Part shown: positions 7,191 to 63,381 of the stretch, one piece after another | Position numbering within the stretch: position 1 is the stretch's first letter | Layout: each line of letters begins with the position of its first letter | NCBI GenBank assembly: GCA_021813945.1 | Contig: JAKAJD010000001.1 | Coordinates: 206,115-270,114 of the forward strand | Source: a bacterium | GTDB taxonomy: Bacteria > Patescibacteriota > Microgenomatia > Curtissbacterales > GWA2-41-24 | Length of the DNA stretch: 64,000 nt | Direction of reading: 5' to 3' | Made by a program: the position numbers and the translations under genes | Notes under the pieces: model-generated | Told to the model about the DNA's origin: nothing | Seen by the model: the letters and a program-made list of their open reading frames with translations, nothing else | The model's database searches: none

Positions 7191-8885
7191 ATGGCTGAAG
7201 CTGACTCTCAAAGCGAATCCCCAAAAACTGCTGAAACACCAATTATTGAAAGAATAAATGGTGCAAGCATTGAAGGAAAACTAATGGAGCTTGCACAAAT
7301 TGGAGGGTCTATAGAAGAAATTGGCAAAAGGGTTGCTGTAACTAGATTAGCATTTTCGGAAGAAGATAAAAGAGCGCGGGAGCTACTCAAACGTTCTATG
7401 TCAGAAGCCGGGATGTCCGTTGAAGAATTCCCCTTCGGTTTGGTTGGAACATATGGCGCGTCGGAAGACAGTTCACCTCAACCAGCGATCATGATGATGT
7501 CCCATTTTGACTCGGTTCCAAACGGTGGGGCATACGACGGAGATGTAGGCGTCATTTCGGCAATAGAAGTTGTAGATGCAATCAACAAACAAGGGATTAG
7601 ATTCCCTAGACCAATCAAGGTTCTTGCATTGACAGCCGAAGAATCTTCACGTTTCCAAATAGCTCTTCTTGGAAGCAAAATGGCCTTTAATGGATTAAGC
7701 CAAGATGAGCTGCAATCGGCTCGTCCTGGTGACGCAACTTTAGAAAAAGCTCTTGAAAACTGGGGGATAGATCCCCAAAGCGTCACAAAACCAACATTTC
7801 ATTCGCAGGATATCGCATCAGTCATTGAATTACATGTTGAACAAAACGACCGGCTTGCCGAAAAAAGTGTAGACCTCGGCGTAGTCGAAGCAATTGCCGC
7901 ACCAGTTAGGAAAGAATTTGTCATCGGCCAACCTATAACACAAGACACAACCGAATACCAAAATGCAAAATACCTTGAAATTACGGTTGCAGGACAAGCA
8001 GACCATTCCGGAGCGACCCCAATGGGAAAAGAAGATAGGGCGGACGGCCTGGTGCCGCTTGCCGATATTTTAATAACGGCAGGGGTATTACAAGATCAGG
8101 ATCCTAACGTAAAAATTTCAATAGGTAATGTCAAGGTTGAAGGCCAAGCCCTCAATAAGATTCCCGGCAACACTTCTTGCACAATAAAAATCGGTGGAAG
8201 CGATGAGCAAATCCAGGCAACAATAGCAACCCTTAAAGATAAAATTGAAAAAAGAAACGATTATTACGAACAGGAATATAAGGAATTCGGCAACGATCCG
8301 ATTAGCGTAAATATTTCGGATACTGCACCGCAGGACACAATCTTTTACAGGCCCAGCGATGTCCATGCATCCAACGAGCTTGCCGGACAGGTAATAAAAG
8401 CGGTAAATTCCGTAGCGCAAAATGTTGGTGAAGAAAATATTGTGGGCACTGTCGGAACTTACAATGTTAAAGACGGGCAAATCGTTTTAGGGGTCGATAT
8501 TAGAGGTATAGATAAAGCGCGGCTCGACGAAGTCTGGGACGAAATCCTTGAAAAACTGGACAGGATGAATAAACACAGAACTCCCTATGTACTCAAAGCG
8601 TTACCTGCAAGCGCCCCTCCAGCTAAAACTGATCAAAGACTTGTAGATTTAACAGAATCAGCAATCAAAGACAATAGCATAGGTTCATACGTTAAAACTT
8701 TTAGTCCTGCAGGTCATGATTCTCAAGTTACAGCAGAAGTTGGGATTCCAACAGGCATGATATTTATTCCAAGTAGAAATGGTGGTGCAAGCCACGTGCC
8801 CGAAGAATATTCTACTCAAGAAGATTTGGAAAAAGGTGCAAGAACTTTGGCTGCTTTGGTGATGAGATTGGCTAAATCCTCGTGA
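7191..8885 (+). CDS. M20 family Zn-dependent amidohydrolase (N-carbamoyl-L-amino-acid hydrolase / allantoate amidohydrolase-like), unusually long
   Basis: MMMSHFDSVPNGGAYDGDVGVISAIEV...LTAEES motifs typical of the AmaB/AllC M20 subfamily. It carries N-terminal and internal extensions (564 aa). Confidence 0.7.
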   Translation: MAEADSQSESPKTAETPIIERINGASIEGKLMELAQIGGSIEEIGKRVAVTRLAFSEEDKRARELLKRSMSEAGMSVEEFPFGLVGTYGASEDSSPQPAIMMMSHFDSVPNGGAYDGDVGVISAIEVVDAINKQGIRFPRPIKVLALTAEESSRFQIALLGSKMAFNGLSQDELQSARPGDATLEKALENWGIDPQSVTKPTFHSQDIASVIELHVEQNDRLAEKSVDLGVVEAIAAPVRKEFVIGQPITQDTTEYQNAKYLEITVAGQADHSGATPMGKEDRADGLVPLADILITAGVLQDQDPNVKISIGNVKVEGQALNKIPGNTSCTIKIGGSDEQIQATIATLKDKIEKRNDYYEQEYKEFGNDPISVNISDTAPQDTIFYRPSDVHASNELAGQVIKAVNSVAQNVGEENIVGTVGTYNVKDGQIVLGVDIRGIDKARLDEVWDEILEKLDRMNKHRTPYVLKALPASAPPAKTDQRLVDLTESAIKDNSIGSYVKTFSPAGHDSQVTAEVGIPTGMIFIPSRNGGASHVPEEYSTQEDLEKGARTLAALVMRLAKSS

Positions 8886-9402: not shown

Positions 9403-9456
9403 CGCTCAACTTTTAGATTTTACCAGAAAGCAGCCCAAAAGCAAAAAAGCCTAAGA

Positions 9457-10774: not shown

Positions 10775-12181
10775 ATGCTAAATAATCTGACCATAGCGCA
10801 AGCTAAAAAACTTCTAGATCAAAAAAAACTAAGCTCATCAGAGCTTACAAAATTTTACTTAGACAGGATAAAAAAATTAGAGCCAAAAATATCAGCGTTT
10901 GTTACTATCACCGATAAGGAAGCGCTTAAACAGGCAGAAAAAGCCGATAAATTAATCTCTCAAGGAGCAAAAAAACTATTATTGGGGATTCCAATAAGTA
11001 TTAAGGATAACTTCAACACAAAAGGGGTTCAAACAACTGCATCTAGCAAAGTTTTGGAAGGTTATATTCCTCCTTACGACGCAACTGTTGTCAATCTATT
11101 AAAAGAGGAAGGTGCTGTTATCGTTGGCAAGACCAATATGGACGCTTGGGCGCATGGTTCATCCACGGAAACCTCCGATTTTGGTTCGACTAAAAATCCA
11201 TGGAACATCAAAAGGCTTCCGGGTGGTTCATCGGGCGGGTCTACAGCAAGCGTAGCGGCTGATGAGGTAGTCATCTCGATTGGTTCAGAAACGGCCGGAT
11301 CGATTCGTCAACCTGCTGCCTGGTGCGGAGTAGTCGGCCTTAAGCCAACATATGGAAGGGTAAGCCGTTATGGCGTTATTGCCATGGGTTCTTCGTTGGA
11401 CAGCCCTGGTCCCATCACGAAAACAGTTGAGGAAAGTGCCTTTGTATTGAATATCCTCGCGGGCCAGGATAAATTCGACGCAACCACTTCACCGAAGAAT
11501 GTTGAGGATTACACAAAAAATTTAAACCAAAAAATATCAGACCTTAAAATTGGAATTTCAAAGCGTTATTTTGACCAATGCGAAAAAGATGTCAAAGACT
11601 CGGTTATGCAAGCTATCAAAGTTCTTGAAAAACTAGGTGCTAAAATCATCGAAATTGATTTATTCGACCCGCAATATGCAATAGCAGTTTACACAATAAT
11701 CCAAAGGGCTGAGGTCTCATCAAACTTGGCTCGCTACGATGGCATCAGATACGGAAATGGGCGAGATAAATTCGGTGAGGAAGCCAAAAGAAGAATAATG
11801 CTTGGAACTTACGCCCTTTCAGCCGGCTACTACGACCAGTATTACAATAAAGCTCAAAAAGTCAGAACGCTAATAATAAATGACTTCAAAAAAGCTTTTA
11901 GCCAAGTTGATGTAATAATTGGTCCCACAAGTCCGTCAACGGCACTCCCACTTGGCGCAAGTAAAGGCCATCCAATGTTTGGTGAAATGGCAGACGTTTT
12001 AGTCGAACCCTCATCGATTGCAGGCTTGCCCGGCATCAATGTCCCCTGCGGCCTTTCAAGCGAAAATCTTCCGATTGGAATGCAAATAATCGGCCCTCAA
12101 TTTTCAGAGAGTCTTATCTTAAATGTCGCCAACCAGTTTGAAAAAAATACAGATTTCCATAAAGCAAGTCCAAACATATGA
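10775..12181 (+). CDS. gatA: Asp/Glu-tRNA amidotransferase subunit A
   Basis: Amidase signature GGSSGGS and KDNFNTKG. 468 aa. Confidence 0.95.
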   Translation: MLNNLTIAQAKKLLDQKKLSSSELTKFYLDRIKKLEPKISAFVTITDKEALKQAEKADKLISQGAKKLLLGIPISIKDNFNTKGVQTTASSKVLEGYIPPYDATVVNLLKEEGAVIVGKTNMDAWAHGSSTETSDFGSTKNPWNIKRLPGGSSGGSTASVAADEVVISIGSETAGSIRQPAAWCGVVGLKPTYGRVSRYGVIAMGSSLDSPGPITKTVEESAFVLNILAGQDKFDATTSPKNVEDYTKNLNQKISDLKIGISKRYFDQCEKDVKDSVMQAIKVLEKLGAKIIEIDLFDPQYAIAVYTIIQRAEVSSNLARYDGIRYGNGRDKFGEEAKRRIMLGTYALSAGYYDQYYNKAQKVRTLIINDFKKAFSQVDVIIGPTSPSTALPLGASKGHPMFGEMADVLVEPSSIAGLPGINVPCGLSSENLPIGMQIIGPQFSESLILNVANQFEKNTDFHKASPNI

Positions 12182-13497
12182 AATATACACCTGTAATTGG
12201 TCTTGAGGTTCATATAGAACTTTACACAAAATCCAAAATGTTTTGTTCTTGCTCAGCCGACTATTTCGGAAAAGAACCGAATACTCACACTTGTCCGGTT
12301 TGCTTGGGTTTGCCGGGGGCTCTTCCTGTCCCTAACAAAAAGGCAATTGAATGGTGCATGGCAATCGGCCTCGCCCTAAATTGCGAAATTTCGGAATTCT
12401 CCAAATTCGACCGCAAAAATTATTTTTATCCGGATCTTCCGAAGGGTTATCAGATTAGCCAGTACGATCAGCCTTTCTGCAAAAAAGGGCAAGTCACTTT
12501 ATCAAGCGGCAAAAAAATCAGAATCACCCGGGCTCACATGGAGGAAGACACGGCAAAGCTGACTCACGCAAAGGTCGATGGCAAAAATGTTTCGCTAATC
12601 GACTTCAACCGCTCCGGTATTCCTTTGGTTGAAATTGTCACCGAACCCGATTTTGAAAATGCCAAAGATGTTGTTGAATATCTCAAGCTTCTCCAACAAA
12701 CTGCAAGATACCTCGGGGTTTCCAAAGCCGACATGGAAAAAGGGGATATGCGGCTCGAACCGAATATCTCTCTCAAAAAGGAGGGGTCAAGTGGTCTACC
12801 AAACTACAAGGTAGAAGTTAAAAATATAAACTCATTTAGATTTGTCGAAAAAGCCATAAATTTCGAGCTTGAGCGTCAAGAAAAAATTTTAGAAGAAGGC
12901 GAGACTCCCAAACAGGAAACACGCGGCTGGAATGAATCTAAACAAGCCACAATATCTCAGCGATCTAAAGAAGAAGCTCATGATTACCGCTATTTTCCGG
13001 AGCCAGATATTCCGCCTGTTAGAACAGGAAGAGATGAGATTGCCGAAATCAAAAGTACTCTACCGGAATTACCCCAAGAAAGACTCAAGCGATTCCAAAC
13101 GCTATACTCGCTCTCTTCCTACGATGCAGAAATCCTAGCAAGGGAAAAAGAAACGGCCGATTTTTTTGATCAAGCGGCAAAAGACGCTAAGTTGCACAAC
13201 GTCAGCCCAAAGCAGATCGCCAATTTCATAATTAACAAAAAACCAGACATTGAAAAAACTTTACCTGCCGAACTAATCCAATCGGTCATCAGTCAAAAAA
13301 CATCGGCGACCATCTCTCAATCGGATCTCGAAGAATTGGTAAAAGAAATTCTTTCTGAAAATCCAGATATTGTAGCGGATTACAAAAAAGGCAAAACCAA
13401 TTCAATTCAGGTCTTAATAGGAAAGGTCATGCAAAAAACAAAGGGTCAAGCAAATGCAAGTGAAGTCAAAACAGAACTCGAAAACCTGCTAAAGTAA
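12178..13497 (+). CDS. gatB: Asp/Glu-tRNA amidotransferase subunit B
   Basis: VIGLEVHIEL...CSCS...CPVCLGLPGALPV is the GatB N-terminus. ATGA overlap with gatA. Confidence 0.95.
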   Translation: MKYTPVIGLEVHIELYTKSKMFCSCSADYFGKEPNTHTCPVCLGLPGALPVPNKKAIEWCMAIGLALNCEISEFSKFDRKNYFYPDLPKGYQISQYDQPFCKKGQVTLSSGKKIRITRAHMEEDTAKLTHAKVDGKNVSLIDFNRSGIPLVEIVTEPDFENAKDVVEYLKLLQQTARYLGVSKADMEKGDMRLEPNISLKKEGSSGLPNYKVEVKNINSFRFVEKAINFELERQEKILEEGETPKQETRGWNESKQATISQRSKEEAHDYRYFPEPDIPPVRTGRDEIAEIKSTLPELPQERLKRFQTLYSLSSYDAEILAREKETADFFDQAAKDAKLHNVSPKQIANFIINKKPDIEKTLPAELIQSVISQKTSATISQSDLEELVKEILSENPDIVADYKKGKTNSIQVLIGKVMQKTKGQANASEVKTELENLLK

Positions 13498-13528
13498 AAT
13501 TTCAGTCTGCTAAAATATAGAGTAAATT

Positions 13529-20393: not shown

Positions 20394-21029
20394 CTAAATA
20401 GAAAATGTTGGGTGCTCATGGTTGTGATCAGAAGGTTTAAATTCTCTTTTTAAATCTTCAATCGATTTTATTGCGTCCTCTGGGGTATTTACTATCTTAA
20501 AAACCAGACGTTCTTCTGGCCTGATATACATTCCTCGAGTGAAGGCAAAAATTATCTCTTGCCAAAAATCACCAAAAAGAATAAGCGGCTTGTGGTGGCC
20601 AAAATAAAGCCTTGCCAATCCCCACGCCATACCAAATTCGGATATTGTTCCGGTCCCTCCATTAAAAATGATAAAAACTTGCCCAATCTCAAGAAGTTTC
20701 AGCGTTCTCTCTAAATAATTCTTTTCAACAATAAGCTTGTCAACTTTATTACTTTCATCTCTCCCCTCAAAAACAGGTATGTCCTTTGGATAGAAAGTAA
20801 TTCCTATGGTTTTTCCACCTTCACTTTTAGCTCCTAATGTTGAAGCTTTCATGATTCCAGGTCCGGCACCATTGACAACTGTGTAACCATGCTTTGCACA
20901 CAACGCCGCAGTTTTAAATGCGGCCTTAAAAGGGTCGTCAGCCTCCTTTGCATCCGCATATCCCAGAAAAGTTACATTTTTTATGGTTGTTTCCTCGCCA
21001 AAAACAGATCGGATAGGTTTTTTAATCAT
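20394..21029 (-). CDS. LOG family protein (nucleotide 5'-monophosphate phosphoribohydrolase / TIGR00730)
   Basis: IFNGGTGTISEFGMAW (PGGxGTxxE-like motif) in a Rossmann fold. Confidence 0.8.
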   Translation of the reverse strand: MIKKPIRSVFGEETTIKNVTFLGYADAKEADDPFKAAFKTAALCAKHGYTVVNGAGPGIMKASTLGAKSEGGKTIGITFYPKDIPVFEGRDESNKVDKLIVEKNYLERTLKLLEIGQVFIIFNGGTGTISEFGMAWGLARLYFGHHKPLILFGDFWQEIIFAFTRGMYIRPEERLVFKIVNTPEDAIKSIEDLKREFKPSDHNHEHPTFSI

Positions 21030-24213: not shown

Positions 24214-24266
24214 TTGAAAGATTATATAAAAAAGCAGCTAATTATTCTATTTGCTAAAATTGACTA

Positions 24267-27225: not shown

Positions 27226-27469
27226 TCGAAAATTATACCAAAATGCTCTTGCACCTCGAACTACGATAATCAGAATTTGAAATTTAGGTCAAAAACGTCA
27301 GCAACTGGCTTGAAAACGGTAAAGATGTTTTTGTCTATTTTAACAATGACGCAATGGGTTACGCCCCCAAAAACGCCCAAGATCTAAAAGGACTAGTTGG
27401 TTTGAGCTAAAAGATTCCAGAATATGAGCTCACCATTACCAAAAGACGAATCACAGAAACTCAAACGAA

Positions 27470-28105: not shown

Positions 28106-28185
28106 AAATTTAGCTAGCAAATTTTACCACAAAACATCCACAAATTACCCCCTCAAACAGATCATCTATCGCTTGAGGCCAGAGC

Positions 28186-28854
28186 CTATTTCCTAAATTT
28201 CTCCAACAAGGCTTCGAGTAATGATTTCGCTGTTCCTTGGCCGCCGAGACCAAAAGCGAGTCCTCCGGCTAGTGCCAGCATCGCCACTAATCCACCGAAA
28301 AGAATTCTCAAAAGCTCTTGCGCAACGCCAAGCTGGTGCAAAACCAAAAAGGCCACAAAAACTATTACCGACCATTCGGCAACAAGCCCAACCGTGTTAG
28401 ATACTTGCTTGCCTAATGACTGACTTGCACTTTTTGCAAGCCTGTAACCCAATCTTGAGAATGCAAGACCTACCATGGCAACAATTACCGCAACAATCAC
28501 ATTTGGAATGTAAAGGATGACCCGGTTTAAAACTGTGTTAACCGCATCCAACCTCCATGCCTGAAGCGTTGGTACCAAAAAGACAATAATAATTGTCCAT
28601 CGGGAAAGCTCAGCTAAAATCTCACTCCACTCTATGTCTTTACCTTCAAGCTTAGTCACTCCATACCTTGCTAAAAACTTTTCAAGCTGGATCATCTTTA
28701 AAAGCCCGAAAACCACACGGTAGACGACAGCTGCTATCACAAGACCAACTATTAAAATAATCAAACCACCTATAAAGCCAGGTATAAAATTAATAAAAGC
28801 TGCAATGGACTTTAAAACGGCCGAAGAAACTGCTGTAGACAAATCGTTTATCAC
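28186..28854 (-). CDS. mechanosensitive-channel-related membrane protein (repeated conserved TM-helix, MscS/CmpX-like)
   Basis: Two repeats of a TM-helix unit (FIGGLIILIVGLVIAAVVYRVV... and LVAMLALAGGLAFGLGGQG). It is the only gene between two tRNAs. Confidence 0.5.
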   Translation of the reverse strand: MINDLSTAVSSAVLKSIAAFINFIPGFIGGLIILIVGLVIAAVVYRVVFGLLKMIQLEKFLARYGVTKLEGKDIEWSEILAELSRWTIIIVFLVPTLQAWRLDAVNTVLNRVILYIPNVIVAVIVAMVGLAFSRLGYRLAKSASQSLGKQVSNTVGLVAEWSVIVFVAFLVLHQLGVAQELLRILFGGLVAMLALAGGLAFGLGGQGTAKSLLEALLEKFRK

Positions 28855-28946
28855 AAATTCTCACCTCCTCCCTATTTCAGCTACACCTCCATTTAAAGAG
28901 ATGTATATGAAAAAAGCAAGTGAAAATAATTTTGGATAGCCAAATT

Positions 28947-33276: not shown

Positions 33277-33603
33277 TTAAACTTTCTCTGTCACCTTTTT
33301 GACCTTCCATATATAATTATTTGCATTGTATTCGAGTTCAAAATTTGCAGTATCCGAAGCGCAAACCAAATCGACCATCCGTGAATCACCAACTCGCCTA
33401 GAAGAGGAAAAAATTACCTTATCAAACTTTACAAAGCGCCGGTTCCAATTCATTGCAATAGGGAAAATTCCTTGATCAAAAAAAGCCCAAACTTTTACCT
33501 TATCATCAACCTCAGTATCCATAATCTCTTTATACCCAAATAAAACCCGAAAATCAAGTGGCAATTTAGCTAGATCTGTAGTATTCTCTAAATCCTTAGC
33601 CAA
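33277..33603 (-). CDS. hypothetical protein (108 aa), first gene of the dinB operon
   Basis: ORF only. 10-nt spacing to dinB. Lies 8 nt from the divergent rhomboid gene. Confidence 0.45.
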   Translation of the reverse strand: MAKDLENTTDLAKLPLDFRVLFGYKEIMDTEVDDKVKVWAFFDQGIFPIAMNWNRRFVKFDKVIFSSSRRVGDSRMVDLVCASDTANFELEYNANNYIWKVKKVTEKV

Positions 33604-33611
33604 AATTTAAA

Positions 33612-34271
33612 ATGTTTCCTATAAGAGATACTAAAAATTCCAATAAATTTCCTTTTGTAAACCTGGCAATAATAGGCACAAATATTTATGTTTTTTATCT
33701 TGAGCTGACAAACCCCGCAATCGAACAATTTATAGGCAAATACGCTCTAATACCGGCAAACATTAACTTTGCAGACATAAACACGCTATCACCGTTTGTG
33801 ACTTCGATGTTTCTGCACGCTGGGTTTTTACATATCATCTCTAACATGTGGTTTTTGTGGATTTTTGGTGACAACGTAGAAGCTAAAATTGGTCACATAA
33901 AGTACTTTACTTTTTACATATTTTGCGGAATCGTGGCAGCATTTGTGCAATATATATTTACGGCAAGCTCTAACATACCAATGCTAGGCGCATCTGGCGC
34001 GATAGCGGGTGTCCTGGGCGCTTATTTAAGGTTTTTTCCCCGCAACAAAGTTGACACGTTAATACCGGTTTTTTTCTTACCGCTTGTTATTAGTATTCCT
34101 GCGGTTTTTATGTTAGTTTACTGGTTTTTAATTCAAGCTTTTTCTACCTTTTCAGCCATAACCGAAACAGCCGGCGGCTTCGACGGCATTGCCTACAGTG
34201 CTCATATAGGAGGATTTTTAATTGGTTTTATAACAGCCCGCTATTTTGTATGGCAAAGCAGACGATTTTGA
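33612..34271 (+). CDS. rhomboid family intramembrane serine protease
   Basis: GASGAIAGVLGAY (GxSG) and the AHIGGFLIG catalytic His. Six TM helices. Confidence 0.85.
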   Translation: MFPIRDTKNSNKFPFVNLAIIGTNIYVFYLELTNPAIEQFIGKYALIPANINFADINTLSPFVTSMFLHAGFLHIISNMWFLWIFGDNVEAKIGHIKYFTFYIFCGIVAAFVQYIFTASSNIPMLGASGAIAGVLGAYLRFFPRNKVDTLIPVFFLPLVISIPAVFMLVYWFLIQAFSTFSAITETAGGFDGIAYSAHIGGFLIGFITARYFVWQSRRF

Positions 34272-34290: not shown

Positions 34291-35334
34291 ATGTCACAAC
34301 CGTCGTATAGGGAATATCTTGATATCCTCAAAGGTCCAAGTACTCAAAAAAAAGTTTTCAAAAGTATCTTTCTTACTATTTTTATTGCATTGTTTCTTGT
34401 CGTTGGCACAGTAAGTTCCCTGTTCTTTTACTATAAAAAAAACATTGAGCCGCAAATAATTGCTTCGGATTTCATTCAAAGTACATCTGTTGGGTTCATT
34501 TCAACCAAGCAGTCCCTAAATGACGTGCTGGACACATTTCAAGTAGCCGGTGAAAAAGTTTCCGTAATTGATAAATTACAAAACAGTCAAAATTCCGAAG
34601 ATGGATATTTCGTGGACCTGCAAGATAAACAAAAATTACTGGAAAAGATACGCGTTGCAAAGGAAAATATCGAGTTTCAAAAAGGCCAACTTCAAAAAAC
34701 AAAATCACCGACAGAATTTAACAGCTTAACACAAGACCTTGTAAACTATTACAGCCAATCCGAAATCTTGCTTTCTCAAACGCAAAAAAATCACGAGTAT
34801 TTCAAAAACATGCTCCTAGCACTTGGGCCGGATTTCTATTTACCAATTCTTTCAAGCGACGCAGCATGGAACTCACAAGATCCTCAAAAAGTCCTTGCCT
34901 ATTACGAGGACAAAAGAACCAAAGCTCAGGATGCACTAACCAGCGTGGCTAAACTCTCACCACAGCCTGATTTTACAGATTATTATCAAGATGAAATAGC
35001 ATACTTGGAACTTTTTGCAAATCTCTCAGGCGATATAACTTCAATTCTAAAAACGCGGCAAGAGCAAAAACCGGACGAAGCACAACCTCTAGAGAAGGCA
35101 TACCAAAAGTTGATAAATGCACAATCAAAAAATAGTGTAATCGCAAGTCGTCTGCTTTCAGAAAAACAAAGGCTGCTTCTTCTAAACGAAAATCTAGACA
35201 AATTTGCGGCGGTAAGATTTCAAGGCAATTCTCTTGAATCAAGAATTAAGGAAGAAAATGCAAAATTTCAAAACGATTCAAGCCTAATTCCGACTTTGGT
35301 TAAATTCATCCATTCCCGAATCAAGACAACATGA
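34291..35334 (+). CDS. hypothetical membrane-anchored protein (single N-terminal TM, helical ectodomain)
   Basis: TM helix IFLTIFIALFLVVGTVSSLFFYY. The remainder is hydrophilic and helix-prone. Confidence 0.5.
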   Translation: MSQPSYREYLDILKGPSTQKKVFKSIFLTIFIALFLVVGTVSSLFFYYKKNIEPQIIASDFIQSTSVGFISTKQSLNDVLDTFQVAGEKVSVIDKLQNSQNSEDGYFVDLQDKQKLLEKIRVAKENIEFQKGQLQKTKSPTEFNSLTQDLVNYYSQSEILLSQTQKNHEYFKNMLLALGPDFYLPILSSDAAWNSQDPQKVLAYYEDKRTKAQDALTSVAKLSPQPDFTDYYQDEIAYLELFANLSGDITSILKTRQEQKPDEAQPLEKAYQKLINAQSKNSVIASRLLSEKQRLLLLNENLDKFAAVRFQGNSLESRIKEENAKFQNDSSLIPTLVKFIHSRIKTT

Positions 35335-35396
35335 AATTTGGTCCTTTACAATTGGCCTGTTAAATTTGTTAAAATTACATAAAGGAGGCTAATTTT

Positions 35397-35633
35397 ATGG
35401 ATCCCAACGACCAGAACCAAATGCCACCGGCAGACGGTGATAATGGCCAGGCACCAACTCCTCCGGCTCCGGAACCAACACCAACTCCGGCTCCGGAAGA
35501 ACCAGCTCAGGGTGGAATGGATGTTCCTCCAGCACCACCAGCAGGTGAAGATCAAGGTCTTCCAGTCCCGCCACCAGCAGGCGAGCCTGAAGTTCCTTCA
35601 GAAACACCTGCTCCTGAAACTCCTCAACAGTAA
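35397..35633 (+). CDS. small acidic Pro/Ala/Glu/Thr-rich low-complexity protein (78 aa)
   Basis: A perfect SD (AAAGGAGG) lies 8 nt upstream of the ATG. Local GC spike. Sequence PAPEPTPTPAPEEPA...PPAPPAGEDQGLPVPPPAGEPEVPSETPAPETPQQ. Confidence 0.5.
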   Translation: MDPNDQNQMPPADGDNGQAPTPPAPEPTPTPAPEEPAQGGMDVPPAPPAGEDQGLPVPPPAGEPEVPSETPAPETPQQ

Positions 35634-35689
35634 GGCTTTAGCCTTCTTAAAAATGGGGCAGCTAAAGTTCCTTTCAGAAGGGAGCATGG

Positions 35690-36358
35690 TTGACGTTAAA
35701 AAAATTTAAAACAGCTTTAAAAAGTTCGGTTGTTATTGGAGTGGTCGTATTCTATGGTTTGGCCGCGTTTATTGTCGGTAGATATACTTCGTCAAAAACT
35801 CCCGAGCAAGTAAAAGGGGTTAGAACTGAATCGACCGGTGACCAGATAGAGAAACCACAGCCTTACACAGACATTCAAAGCGGGTCGGTCATAGCCTCAA
35901 GTGTAAATTTTTGCTCAAACACAGTCTATTCTTTCCAACTCGCCTATCCTAAAGACTGGTTTACGACTTATAACAATAAGTATCAGGAGTGTACCTTTTT
36001 TGCACCGTTTTCCTTTGTTGTTCCAGGCTACCTAGAACATGATATTGTGCCCATAACAGTTGTTCCAGTTGCTCCAGCAGACTGGCAAACCACAGTCAAA
36101 CTCTATGAAAACCCCAACGATTACCAAAATGTTACATCCACAAAAAACGTTGAGATAAATGGAAGATCAACAGAAATAATCGACTCAACTTCAACGGGAA
36201 ATGGTTTTGTACCATTAGGTTTAGTTAAAAAAAGCTACCTTATATTTGATGGAAGAATGCCGCTTGTTATCTATTACCAGCAGCTGAATTCAAATGAAGA
36301 CGTTTTACGAACAGAAAAAGTTTTAGAAGAAACAGTAAGCAGCCTCAAATATTTTTAG
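35690..36358 (+). CDS. hypothetical membrane-anchored protein (N-terminal TM, about 190-aa extracytoplasmic domain)
   Basis: TTG start preceded by AAGGGAG. TM helix VVIGVVVFYGLAAFIVG. Confidence 0.5.
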   Translation: MTLKKFKTALKSSVVIGVVVFYGLAAFIVGRYTSSKTPEQVKGVRTESTGDQIEKPQPYTDIQSGSVIASSVNFCSNTVYSFQLAYPKDWFTTYNNKYQECTFFAPFSFVVPGYLEHDIVPITVVPVAPADWQTTVKLYENPNDYQNVTSTKNVEINGRSTEIIDSTSTGNGFVPLGLVKKSYLIFDGRMPLVIYYQQLNSNEDVLRTEKVLEETVSSLKYF

Positions 36359-63316: not shown

Positions 63317-63381
63317 AAGCATGCAAATTATACCAAAATACAGTTTGATTTATCTTGGAATTTGAAGGTATTATTCAAGAA

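Follow-up and report, generated by a model that had tools for sequence, protein, structure and literature searches.

A lineage-specific gene for a small, acidic, proline-rich and putatively disordered protein in Microgenomates/Curtissbacteria-type CPR bacteria

Is the short, GC-rich open reading frame at 35397..35633 (+ strand; ATG start, TAA stop at 35631-35633) of the 64,000 nt stretch of DNA analyzed here (the window) a gene, and if so, what might its acidic, proline-rich, disordered product of 78 amino acids do? A preliminary description had offered a DNA or protein mimic, a regulator, or the precursor of a modified peptide as candidate roles.

The Open Reading Frame and Its Relatives

The host lineage consists of uncultured groundwater bacteria (Microgenomates/Curtissbacteria). 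Among 13 relatives located through a neighboring gene, 12 have an open reading frame of 70-87 amino acids at the equivalent place, and about 35 further relatives were found by scanning with a DNA pattern made up of the Shine-Dalgarno (SD) sequence plus MDPND. Across the 32 distinct homologs only the annotated frame is open throughout; each of the other five is open in 0-11 of them. All insertions and deletions in the small gene are multiples of three, dN/dS lies between 0.07 and 0.47, and the differences are concentrated at codon position 3. The comparison thus indicates that the frame is a real protein gene, one specific to CPR bacteria of the Microgenomates/Curtissbacteria type, and purifying selection is shown, as judged from the aligned homologs, to have kept its frame, its MDPND N-terminus, its acidic, Pro/Gly-rich composition free of basic residues, and its length. 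The preliminary description had staked its gene claim on conservation of the frame in related genomes, and the claim survives. One relative (L135; GCA_016196855.1, contig JACPWX010000056.1) carries a 5'-truncated small gene, not called in the NCBI assembly, next to an intact downstream gene, which suggests that the small gene is dispensable if this truncation is not a misassembly.

The overlapping open frames at 35437-35709 (+), 35346-35555 (-), and 35395-35607 (-), earlier put down as artefacts, do not stay open across the relatives. The idea that the annotated frame is itself a chance opening in GC-rich, low-complexity DNA can point to the several frames open in the window and to the absence of relatives in HMMER searches, but it is refuted by the comparative data and deserves practically no credence, since only one frame is open across the 32 homologs, dN/dS is below 0.5, GC is 0.28 at third against 0.85 at first codon positions, and start codon, SD, and promoter are conserved.

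In the window GC peaks in the 200 nt that begin at 35397 (0.595; window mean 0.395, standard deviation 0.047, z = 4.3), so the local GC spike of the preliminary description turns out to be the highest GC of the entire 64 kb. What that description did not say is that the spike is purely compositional. GC at the three codon positions of the small gene is 0.85/0.60/0.28, and its synonymous codons end in A or T, as they do in the host; because of the low value at the third position, the spike is ascribed to Pro, Ala, Gly, and Glu codons and not to foreign DNA, and horizontal transfer as its source is ruled out by that value together with the native codon choice.

The small protein fits no described family. 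Scans of Pfam, NCBIfam, PHROGs, and PADLOC gave no matches, and a PDB sequence search returned nothing at E values up to 10. An HMMER profile built from three members and run against 1.84 billion representative proteins recovered only the query's own cluster, for which we suspect the program's composition-bias correction, and a word-indexed search of 5.8 billion proteins found just two homologs. Viral contigs scanned with the SD plus MDPND pattern yielded four matches; none of these belongs to the family, and nothing therefore points to a phage origin. The literature searched, on small or disordered proteins of Patescibacteria, on SD-led and leaderless genes in CPR bacteria, on Microgenomates metaproteomics, and on the string MDPNDQ contained nothing on this family.

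Composition of the Small Protein

The product of the window's gene is 32% Pro, has 14 Asp plus Glu residues and a net charge of -14, and has no Lys, Arg, His, aromatic residue, or Cys. Family members are 70-89 amino acids long with net charges of -10 to -21 and 10-32% Pro; basic (K, R, H) and aromatic (F, W, Y) residues and C make up nearly 0% across the 32. Charge-hydropathy criteria class all 32 as disordered, and on these criteria the earlier picture of an acidic, Pro-rich, disordered peptide holds, the product being a disordered polyanion. The composition used for assessing foldability (~24% Pro, 15% Gly, and ~9% hydrophobic) is incompatible with a fold. As had been stated before, the 78 amino acid protein has neither a signal peptide nor a transmembrane helix (its 19-residue hydropathy peaks at -0.31), and no known export motif was found in it.

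Conservation is confined to the first five to seven residues. The N-terminal motif MDPNDQ (35397..35414, +) appears as MDPN in 11 of the 12 intact relatives found by synteny and as MDPDE in the remaining one, and because its third codon positions vary, the constraint acts on the peptide. A second motif, DVPPAPP (residues 42-48; 35520..35540, +), follows the family pattern [DE]-[ILV..]-x-P-x(1,2)-PP; the strict form (of the acidic-[IVL]-x-PPxPP type) occurs in 22 of the 32 distinct members and looser variants in most others, and some members (for example L019) lack the Pro motif or any polyproline and keep their acidity. The window's protein contains six xPPx motifs, VPPP and PPPA among them. 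Ser plus Thr make up 12%, Cys 0%, and there is no leader/core partition. The C-terminal PQQ is invariant only in the window's close clade, and elsewhere the C-termini vary (PTS, SMS, TVS, QPA, TAA, SSL, and PGG among others). The window's gene has no tandem repeats; a perfect threefold 21 bp repeat is found solely in relative L003.

Transcription and Translation Signals

The SD sequence AAAGGAGG (35381..35388, +) lies 8 nt ahead of the ATG. This octamer occurs three times when both strands of the window are counted, and the other two copies are inside open reading frames (12178..13497, +, and 20394..21029, -), neither ahead of the start codon assigned to its gene. With a calculated anti-SD duplex energy of -11.7 kcal/mol the small gene ranks second among 56 genes, behind GGGAGGAGGTGA (-16.2), which precedes a minus-strand GTG at 28854; the preliminary description was therefore right to see one of the two strongest SDs here but not in calling it the strongest. 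Its remark that most genes here have a weak SD or none holds, since only about 4 of the 56 genes reach -7.9 or better, which makes this an SD-poor genome. Conservation of the SD in relatives, a check which that description had proposed, was borne out in each of the 12 intact relatives that synteny alone had brought up, the SD having played no part in finding them. The SD is mostly unpaired in the predicted fold of the leader.

Just before the SD the small gene has what appears to be its own conserved promoter (TTTACAAA ... TGnTAAAAT), a promoter-like block that went unremarked in the preliminary description. A -35-like hexamer, TTTACA (35345..35350, +), is part of the conserved block (GGGG)TTTACAAA, and an extended -10 element, TGTTAAAAT, follows at 35367..35375 (+). 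In an alignment of 31 upstream regions the TTTACAAA block is at least 80% conserved, as is T.TG.TAAAAT in the family; the search pattern fixed none of the bases in the -35/-10 block. The arrangement TTTACA-N16-20-TAAAAT has a single match in the window. TGnTAWAAT occurs there 19 times where 10.6 would be expected, and tRNAs and leaderless genes have it in front of them; the extended -10 is the general promoter type of this genome. Transcription would be expected to start about 7 nt downstream of the extended -10.

The Downstream Gene and the Surrounding Locus

The gene directly downstream (35690..36358, +; called down222 here) has a TTG start and should encode a protein with a basic N-terminal tail (MTLKKFKTALK), one transmembrane helix, and an extracytoplasmic ectodomain of the PsbP/DcrB/LpqN fold with two invariant Cys residues. 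A down222 homolog lies directly 3' of the small gene in every locus with enough flanking sequence and an intact small gene. The small gene is thus invariably paired with its downstream neighbor and not with both flanks, which the preliminary description had missed in placing it between two genes for membrane-anchored proteins. It was correct as to their anchoring, for each combines a single hydrophobic helix at the N-terminus with a large domain C-terminal to it. The tail consensus is MTLxxFKxxLK, in which T2 and L3 are invariant or nearly so, and only about 12 residues of the protein face the cytoplasm. The small gene's stop codon is conserved, so that it stays separate from down222, and none of 82 down222 homologs is fused to a Pro-rich region. 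Among the genomes that keep the small gene, down222 diverges to ~40% identity.

The spacer between the two genes is 56-330 nt long. In most distant relatives it holds a promoter of down222's own (TTGACA-N17-TATGCT), and in the window's clade, where no separate promoter is recognizable, read-through from the small gene is suggested. A small hairpin, AAGGC-TTTA-GCCTT (35632..35645, +), overlaps the stop codon with no T-run behind it and is retained with G-U changes in the close clade; since the terminator scan did not report it, it can be a weak terminator at most. The conserved intergenic block GGGCAGCTAAAGTTCCTTTC (35656..35675, +) contains CCTTTC, which can pair with the down222 SD, GAAGGGAG (35677-35684, +), and GGGCAGCT in this block is invariant in the close clade. 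An SD-sequestering hairpin is predicted in each sequence. RNAalifold analysis of the spacer gave a 7 bp hairpin over the SD; its consensus energy is a mere -3 kcal/mol and covariation is absent, and for these reasons we do not claim it as a structure.

On the other side, the upstream gene (34291..35334, +) encodes a 347 amino acid protein with one transmembrane helix and an all-helical bundle, for which a fold search returned only generic helical bundles; it is a frequent but dispensable neighbor. Before it lies a rhomboid protease gene (33612..34271, +; Pfam PF01694, E = 1.5e-34), present in most loci but not all. These two genes and yjbQ come and go around the small gene/down222 pair, and a PMT_2 glycosyltransferase gene lies ~4 kb upstream of the small gene. 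Because the whole region (dinB ... xseAB ... ppdK-eno) is syntenic throughout the lineage, adjacency is weak evidence of a functional link.

Possible Functions

The reading we favor, with confidence that stops a little short of even, is that the small gene encodes a disordered polyanion that is abundant in the cytoplasm and works through binding, with docking to the down222 tail as a further step. The promoter would give rise to a ~15 nt leader that starts at the exposed AAAGGAGG, and in this SD-poor genome a gene with an ATG and a strong SD would be translated far more than down222, with its TTG and its weak or sequestered SD. Strong translation, and with it abundance, is what these signals predict for the small protein. 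The product would be a cytoplasmic polyanion of ~8 kDa that has no fixed fold and acts stoichiometrically, not catalytically; it would dock through MDPNDQ and, in the majority of the family, also through the acidic-[IVL]-x-PPxPP motif, and the remaining acidic chain would contribute charge and bulk, shielding basic surfaces or competing for them. The likeliest docking site would be the basic cytoplasmic tail of down222 (MTLKKFKxxLK), and we suggest tentatively that the small protein could there line the inside of the envelope as an acidic brush. The strong asymmetry of the translation signals would be odd for an obligate 1:1 partnership with down222. Against the favored explanation as a whole count the promoter that down222 has in most distant relatives, the shortness of its cytoplasmic part (~12 residues), the lineage-wide synteny that weakens adjacency as evidence, the truncation in L135, and the lack of PPxPP in some members.

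A rather unlikely alternative is that the polyanion is free in the cytoplasm and has nothing to do with its neighbors: it could mimic or compete with nucleic acids, act as an electrostatic chaperone of the prothymosin-alpha/Hero type, or serve as a counter-ion or hydration buffer. The clients of such a chaperone would be basic nucleoid or ribosomal proteins, and the setting of such a buffer an ultra-small cell. Composition, charge, length, and N-terminal motif are universal in the family while the remaining sequence drifts fast, the strong expression signals are conserved and do not match those of down222, and members of the L019 type stay acidic without the Pro motif, all as this idea would have it; it leaves unexplained why the gene sits right beside down222 at every locus, and the PDB sequence search found no similarity to any solved structure. 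Prothymosin-alpha and Hero proteins, and the acidic disordered tails on SSB, Hfq, and RNA polymerase delta, act by charge. Like these eukaryotic and bacterial polyanions the small protein is small and acidic with few hydrophobic or aromatic residues, and like prothymosin-alpha and Hero proteins it combines high negative charge and disorder with a composition conserved over sequence. It is, however, unrelated to them in sequence, stands alone at 75-89 amino acids instead of forming a tail, is unusually rich in Pro and Gly (24% and 15%), has practically no Lys or Arg, and has its MDPND N-terminus. It might possibly act like a polyanionic competitor. The DNA mimics Ocr, ArdA, and the DMP type are folded scaffolds with carboxylates patterned like the DNA backbone, which a protein with ~24% Pro and 15% Gly cannot form. 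The earlier suggestions of a DNA or protein mimic and of a regulator might each hold.

It is quite unlikely that the protein is instead an exported Pro-rich acidic peptide that partners in trans with down222's ectodomain (PsbP/LpqN fold), as a split version of Apa/MTC28 or as some other surface, secreted, or modified peptide. Apa and MTC28 are mycobacterial Pro/Ala-rich secreted antigens of the LpqN-like fold family that carry their disordered Pro-rich arms in cis; profilins, for their part, bind polyproline. The PT/PA-rich acidic segments do resemble extracellular linkers, the composition would resist most proteases, the PMT_2 gene is not far off, and down222 has the core domain of Apa and MTC28. 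In those proteins, though, the Pro-rich segment belongs to the same polypeptide, whereas here it is encoded separately, lacks a signal peptide, should by prediction be found across the membrane from the domain, and is fused to it in 0 of 82 homologs; transmembrane segment, known export motif, and Cys are likewise absent, and no locus has a transporter or modifying-enzyme gene within ~8 kb.

Small open frames upstream of membrane-protein genes also include arrest and leader peptides (SecM, MifM, and polyproline/EF-P sensors), and the small gene shares with them its position directly ahead of down222 and its six xPPx motifs. A regulatory upstream frame in which polyproline stalls ribosomes and EF-P relieves them, so tuning transcription or translation of down222, would also suit a down222 SD that a hairpin can sequester and the lack of an evident separate promoter in the window's clade. 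We nevertheless consider it very unlikely: purifying selection covers the full 75-89 amino acids and the N-terminus is conserved, the Pro motif lies ~140 nt upstream of the down222 SD, the 56-330 nt spacer carries an independent promoter in most relatives, some members (L019) have no polyproline, the hairpin lacks covariation, and a sensor frame, unlike this gene, needs no consensus SD and promoter.

A Pup/UBact-like tag ligated through a C-terminal Gln is hardly credible and largely refuted, for although the protein is disordered, acidic, and at 70-89 amino acids within the ~60-90 of such tags, and has PQQ as its invariant C-terminus throughout the window's clade, it has no GGQ or GGE, the family as a whole has no conserved terminal Q or E, and neither Dop/PafA (ligase/deamidase) nor proteasome genes or domains appear in the gene table of any locus (within ~3-8 kb in more than 10 loci). 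The precursor of a modified peptide is disfavored and a RiPP precursor rejected, since there is no Cys, no core of modifiable residues behind a leader, and no YcaO, radical-SAM, LanM, or ABC exporter gene within ~8 kb in any locus; the neighbors are the rhomboid (the sole protease, missing in several loci), the two single-pass membrane proteins, DinB, and XseAB. A type II antitoxin, which would be a labile acidic protein with a domain for binding DNA, be followed by the gene of a cytoplasmic toxin, and show the scattered occurrence of a mobile element, is rejected as well, as the small protein has no folded domain, down222 is extracytoplasmic and membrane-anchored, and the synteny is stable and chromosomal.

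Significance

The finding opens no long-standing question. It concerns genomes of ~1 Mb in which much coding capacity is unannotated, and a family that the usual homology tools do not see; it shows how small proteins of biased composition go unannotated and can be recovered by a search that combines synteny with DNA signals. Trypsin-based metaproteomics would be blind to this protein because it has no Lys or Arg, which bears on the proteomic check proposed in the preliminary description. The small gene is probably important to its hosts, as it is kept with a near-consensus promoter and SD while down222 diverges. The polyanion could also be imagined as a lysine-free, protease-resistant, abundant and lineage-specific structural component of the envelope system of these ultra-small bacteria, either an acidic brush docked through MDPND to the basic tail of down222 or a Pro-rich arm that is exported by an unrecognized route and acts in trans; this is unlikely, but if true, the two genes would in either version make up an envelope module of a new type.

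The small gene and its expression signals

The small ORF (35397-35633, + strand) has an ATG start, 78 codons and a TAA stop, and the Shine-Dalgarno (SD) sequence AAAGGAGG (35381-35388, +) lies 8 nt 5′ of its ATG. When anti-SD pairing was scored over the 20 nt that precede each of 56 long ORFs of the window, this site reached −11.7 kcal/mol and ranked second; scores of −7.9 or better are limited to about four genes, and the majority lie above −4. The preliminary description was thus right that most genes here have a weak SD or none, but its "strongest SD in the window" must be amended to one of the two best, in a genome where SDs are scarce. The sole better SD is GGGAGGAGGTGA, the strongest in the window, which precedes a GTG at 28854 (−). 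That GTG opens an ORF at 28186-28854 (−) whose public gene call begins 38 codons later, at 28740, so that a TM-rich N-terminus (MINDLSTAVSSAVLKSIAAFINFIPGFIGGLIILIVG) has probably been cut off; this SD and the stretch ahead of the called start lie within 28740-28871 (−).

Alignment of 31 upstream regions gives the following order, at least 80% conserved: TTT..GGGGTTTACAAA, 14-15 nt, T.TG.TAAAAT, usually 4-5 nt, AAAGGAGG, 4-8 nt, ATG; sequence further upstream is not conserved. The small gene thus has conserved promoter-like and SD signals, which in the window include a TTTACA element (35345-35350, +) and an extended −10, TGTTAAAAT (35367-35375, +), a pair unique within the 64 kb. The sequence TGnTAWAAT occurs 19 times in the window (10.6 expected) and is a common promoter form (for example, 13508-13516 (+), 24252-24260 (+), 27232-27240 (−), 9417-9425 (−), 28121-28129 (−) and 63327-63335 (−)), found 6-15 nt 5′ of several start codons and also before the tRNA-Glu and tRNA-His genes. 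Many genes have it or a TATAAT-like element 6-15 nt 5′ of the start codon, which suggests that many mRNAs of this genome are leaderless. The small-gene transcript would start about 7 nt past its −10, giving a ∼15-nt leader that opens at the SD, a stretch predicted to be mostly unpaired. What follows the stop codon is just a 5-bp hairpin lacking a T-run.

Relatives of the small gene

A word-indexed protein search found two homologues of the small protein (85 and 74 aa), both in the gene order rhomboid, ∼350-aa protein, small ORF, ∼223-aa protein, xseA, xseB. An HMMER profile search of 1.84 billion representatives recovered the query's own cluster alone; HMMER cannot see this low-complexity family, and the downstream gene (35690-36358, +), which encodes a 222-aa membrane-anchored protein of the PsbP/DcrB/LpqN fold, was therefore taken as the search anchor. 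It has 82 homologues (39-100% identity), of which the full-length ones are all 196-236 aa and a few shorter entries look truncated; the source names of some are Candidatus Microgenomates or Curtissbacteria.

Thirteen distinct relatives (L003, L006, L007, L008, L010-L013, L128-L130, L135 and L136) were located via this anchor or by peptide matches, the anchored ones independently of the small ORF. An intact ORF of 70-87 aa occupies the same position in 12 of the 13, each preceded by AAAGGAGG; 11 begin with MDPN and one with MDPDE. The other, L135 (GCA_016196855.1, contig JACPWX010000056.1), is 3.3 kb long, comes from a Curtissbacteria MAG and retains the gene's 3′ two-thirds alone (1280-1500). 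It lacks the promoter, the SD and the N-terminal first third; what is left, which includes GGDQPQTPPPAEPPAEDTGEIAPPPPAVEEPG and runs to the stop, abuts, out of frame, the end of the homologue of the 347-aa upstream gene, owing either to a real deletion or to a misassembly.

Scanning metagenome contigs for the DNA pattern AAAGGAGG-N4-8-ATGGAYCCNRAYGA gave 114 loci, about 40 of which encode the same kind of protein. As the pattern demanded both SD and N-terminus, conservation of these two is circular in that set, and the rest is independent evidence. The records of two loci, L008 (CAYTEJ010000022.1) and L009 (CAZEDQ010000031.1), are titled "uncultured Gammaproteobacteria bacterium"; these bin labels are probably wrong, because the gene order is that of the window and homologues of the downstream protein are elsewhere labelled Microgenomates or Curtissbacteria. 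As far as sampled, the family is confined to CPR genomes of the Microgenomates/Curtissbacteria type that come from groundwater and sediment.

Selection on the reading frame

In a three-way DNA alignment all indels are multiples of three (3, 12, 30 and 42 nt), and the ATG, SD and TAA stop are invariant. The annotated frame has no stops in the genes of all 32 distinct proteins; the remaining five stay open in just 0-11 members, and the overlapping alternative-frame ORFs are therefore artefacts. Values of dN/dS are 0.07-0.47 in 16 pairwise comparisons, with changes concentrated at codon position 3. These comparative measures show the small ORF to be a conserved gene under selection on its protein, and the reading frame, not merely the nucleotide composition, is retained in relatives.

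The GC spike remarked on earlier is the maximum of the whole window (0.595 over the 200 nt starting at 35397, z = 4.3); the window, taken from a 976 kb metagenomic contig, is 39.5% GC. The gene's GC1/2/3 values are 0.85/0.60/0.28 (GC3 is 0.33-0.37 in neighbouring genes), and its synonymous codons are A/T-ending as in the rest of the genome. Low GC3 and native codon choice rule out foreign DNA as the source, and the spike is therefore the compositional footprint, in a native gene, of Pro (CCN), Ala (GCN), Gly (GGN) and Glu/Asp codons.

The protein family

The window's protein is 32% Pro, with 14 acidic residues, no basic or aromatic residues, no Cys and no hydrophobic segment, in keeping with its description as an acidic, disordered peptide lacking a signal peptide and TM helix. 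Family members are 70-89 aa long, with a mean composition of P 23.6%, G 15%, D 10%, Q 9%, A 9% and E 8%, and K, R, H, F, W, Y and C each about 0%. Their net charge is −10 to −21 and the charge-hydropathy criterion classes every one as disordered, so the gene encodes what by composition is a basic-free, polyanionic, disordered protein.

The N-terminus, MDPND(Q), is conserved. About two-thirds along the chain lies an acidic-[IVL]-x-PPxPP motif, strict in 22 of 32 members and loose in most others (DVPPAPP, residues 42-48, in the window's protein); the C-terminal PQQ is confined to the window's clade. Repeat number differs among relatives. The homologue in L003 contains a perfect 21-bp tandem repeat in three copies (CACCTCCGGCTCCGGAACCAA; 8071-8133) encoding (PPAPEPT)3, and the unlike copy number between close relatives points to a recent slippage-type expansion.

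Genomic neighborhood

A homologue of the 222-aa protein gene lies directly 3′ of the small gene in every family locus with adequate flank and an intact small gene, an invariable pairing, in the loci compared, with a PsbP-fold membrane protein gene. Other neighbours vary: the 347-aa upstream gene (34291-35334, +), whose product is a TM-anchored helical bundle that gave no informative structural match, is missing in one sub-clade, the rhomboid gene (33612-34271, +) is missing from several loci, and yjbQ is inserted downstream in some. With the whole dinB-to-eno region syntenic throughout the lineage, the adjacency by itself argues only moderately for a functional link. A 108-aa ORF (33277-33603, −) between dinB and the rhomboid gene has no Pfam or NCBIfam match and may specify a further conserved hypothetical small protein; in L003, L010, L012 and L136 the equivalent position holds a called gene of 81-87 aa.

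The downstream gene starts with TTG or GTG in nearly all relatives (TTGACGCT = MTL; 35690 in the window); its product carries two invariant Cys, one TM helix and a basic N-terminal tail that is conserved (consensus MTLxxFKxxLK). Pfam PsbP_2 matches 18 of 47 homologues weakly, and the AF2 model is confident for the C-terminal half only. Among the spacers examined (L011-L013, L015, L021, L042, L085, L100, L128 and L129), a TTGACA-N17-TATGCT promoter for this gene is conserved in most distant relatives, whereas in the window's clade it has decayed and GGGCAGCTAA..GTTCCTTTC is conserved in its place. There a modelled CCUUUC...GAAGGGAG hairpin could cover the downstream gene's SD; no covariation support for it was found.

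Possible function

The small protein would be highly expressed from its short leader, stay in the cytoplasm and act stoichiometrically, by means of its N-terminal motif, in many cases also the PPxPP motif, and its long acidic chain. The preferred target, proposed tentatively, is the conserved basic cytoplasmic tail of the downstream membrane protein. Nearly as likely, it would be a free polyanion serving as a mimic, electrostatic chaperone or counter-ion. Were it exported to act in trans as a Pro-rich arm of the PsbP/LpqN-fold ectodomain, the parallel to Apa and MTC28 would be attractive, but the protein has no export signal of any kind. A polyproline leader peptide is disfavoured by selection over the whole length of the gene, by independent downstream promoters and by family members that have no polyproline. 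Against a Pup-like role stand the unconserved C-terminus and a neighbourhood without ligase genes, and the earlier suggestion of a modified-peptide (RiPP) precursor is disfavoured by composition and gene context. Nothing in PHROG, PADLOC or viral-contig searches pointed to a phage or defence origin.

Having neither Lys nor Arg, the protein yields no tryptic peptides, and its proteomic detection requires Glu-C, Asp-N or top-down methods. Family, structure and literature searches found no curated family, solved structure or paper for it. It behaves like known charge-driven disordered polyanions but is a member of no defined family and represents, on solid grounds, a new small-protein family.
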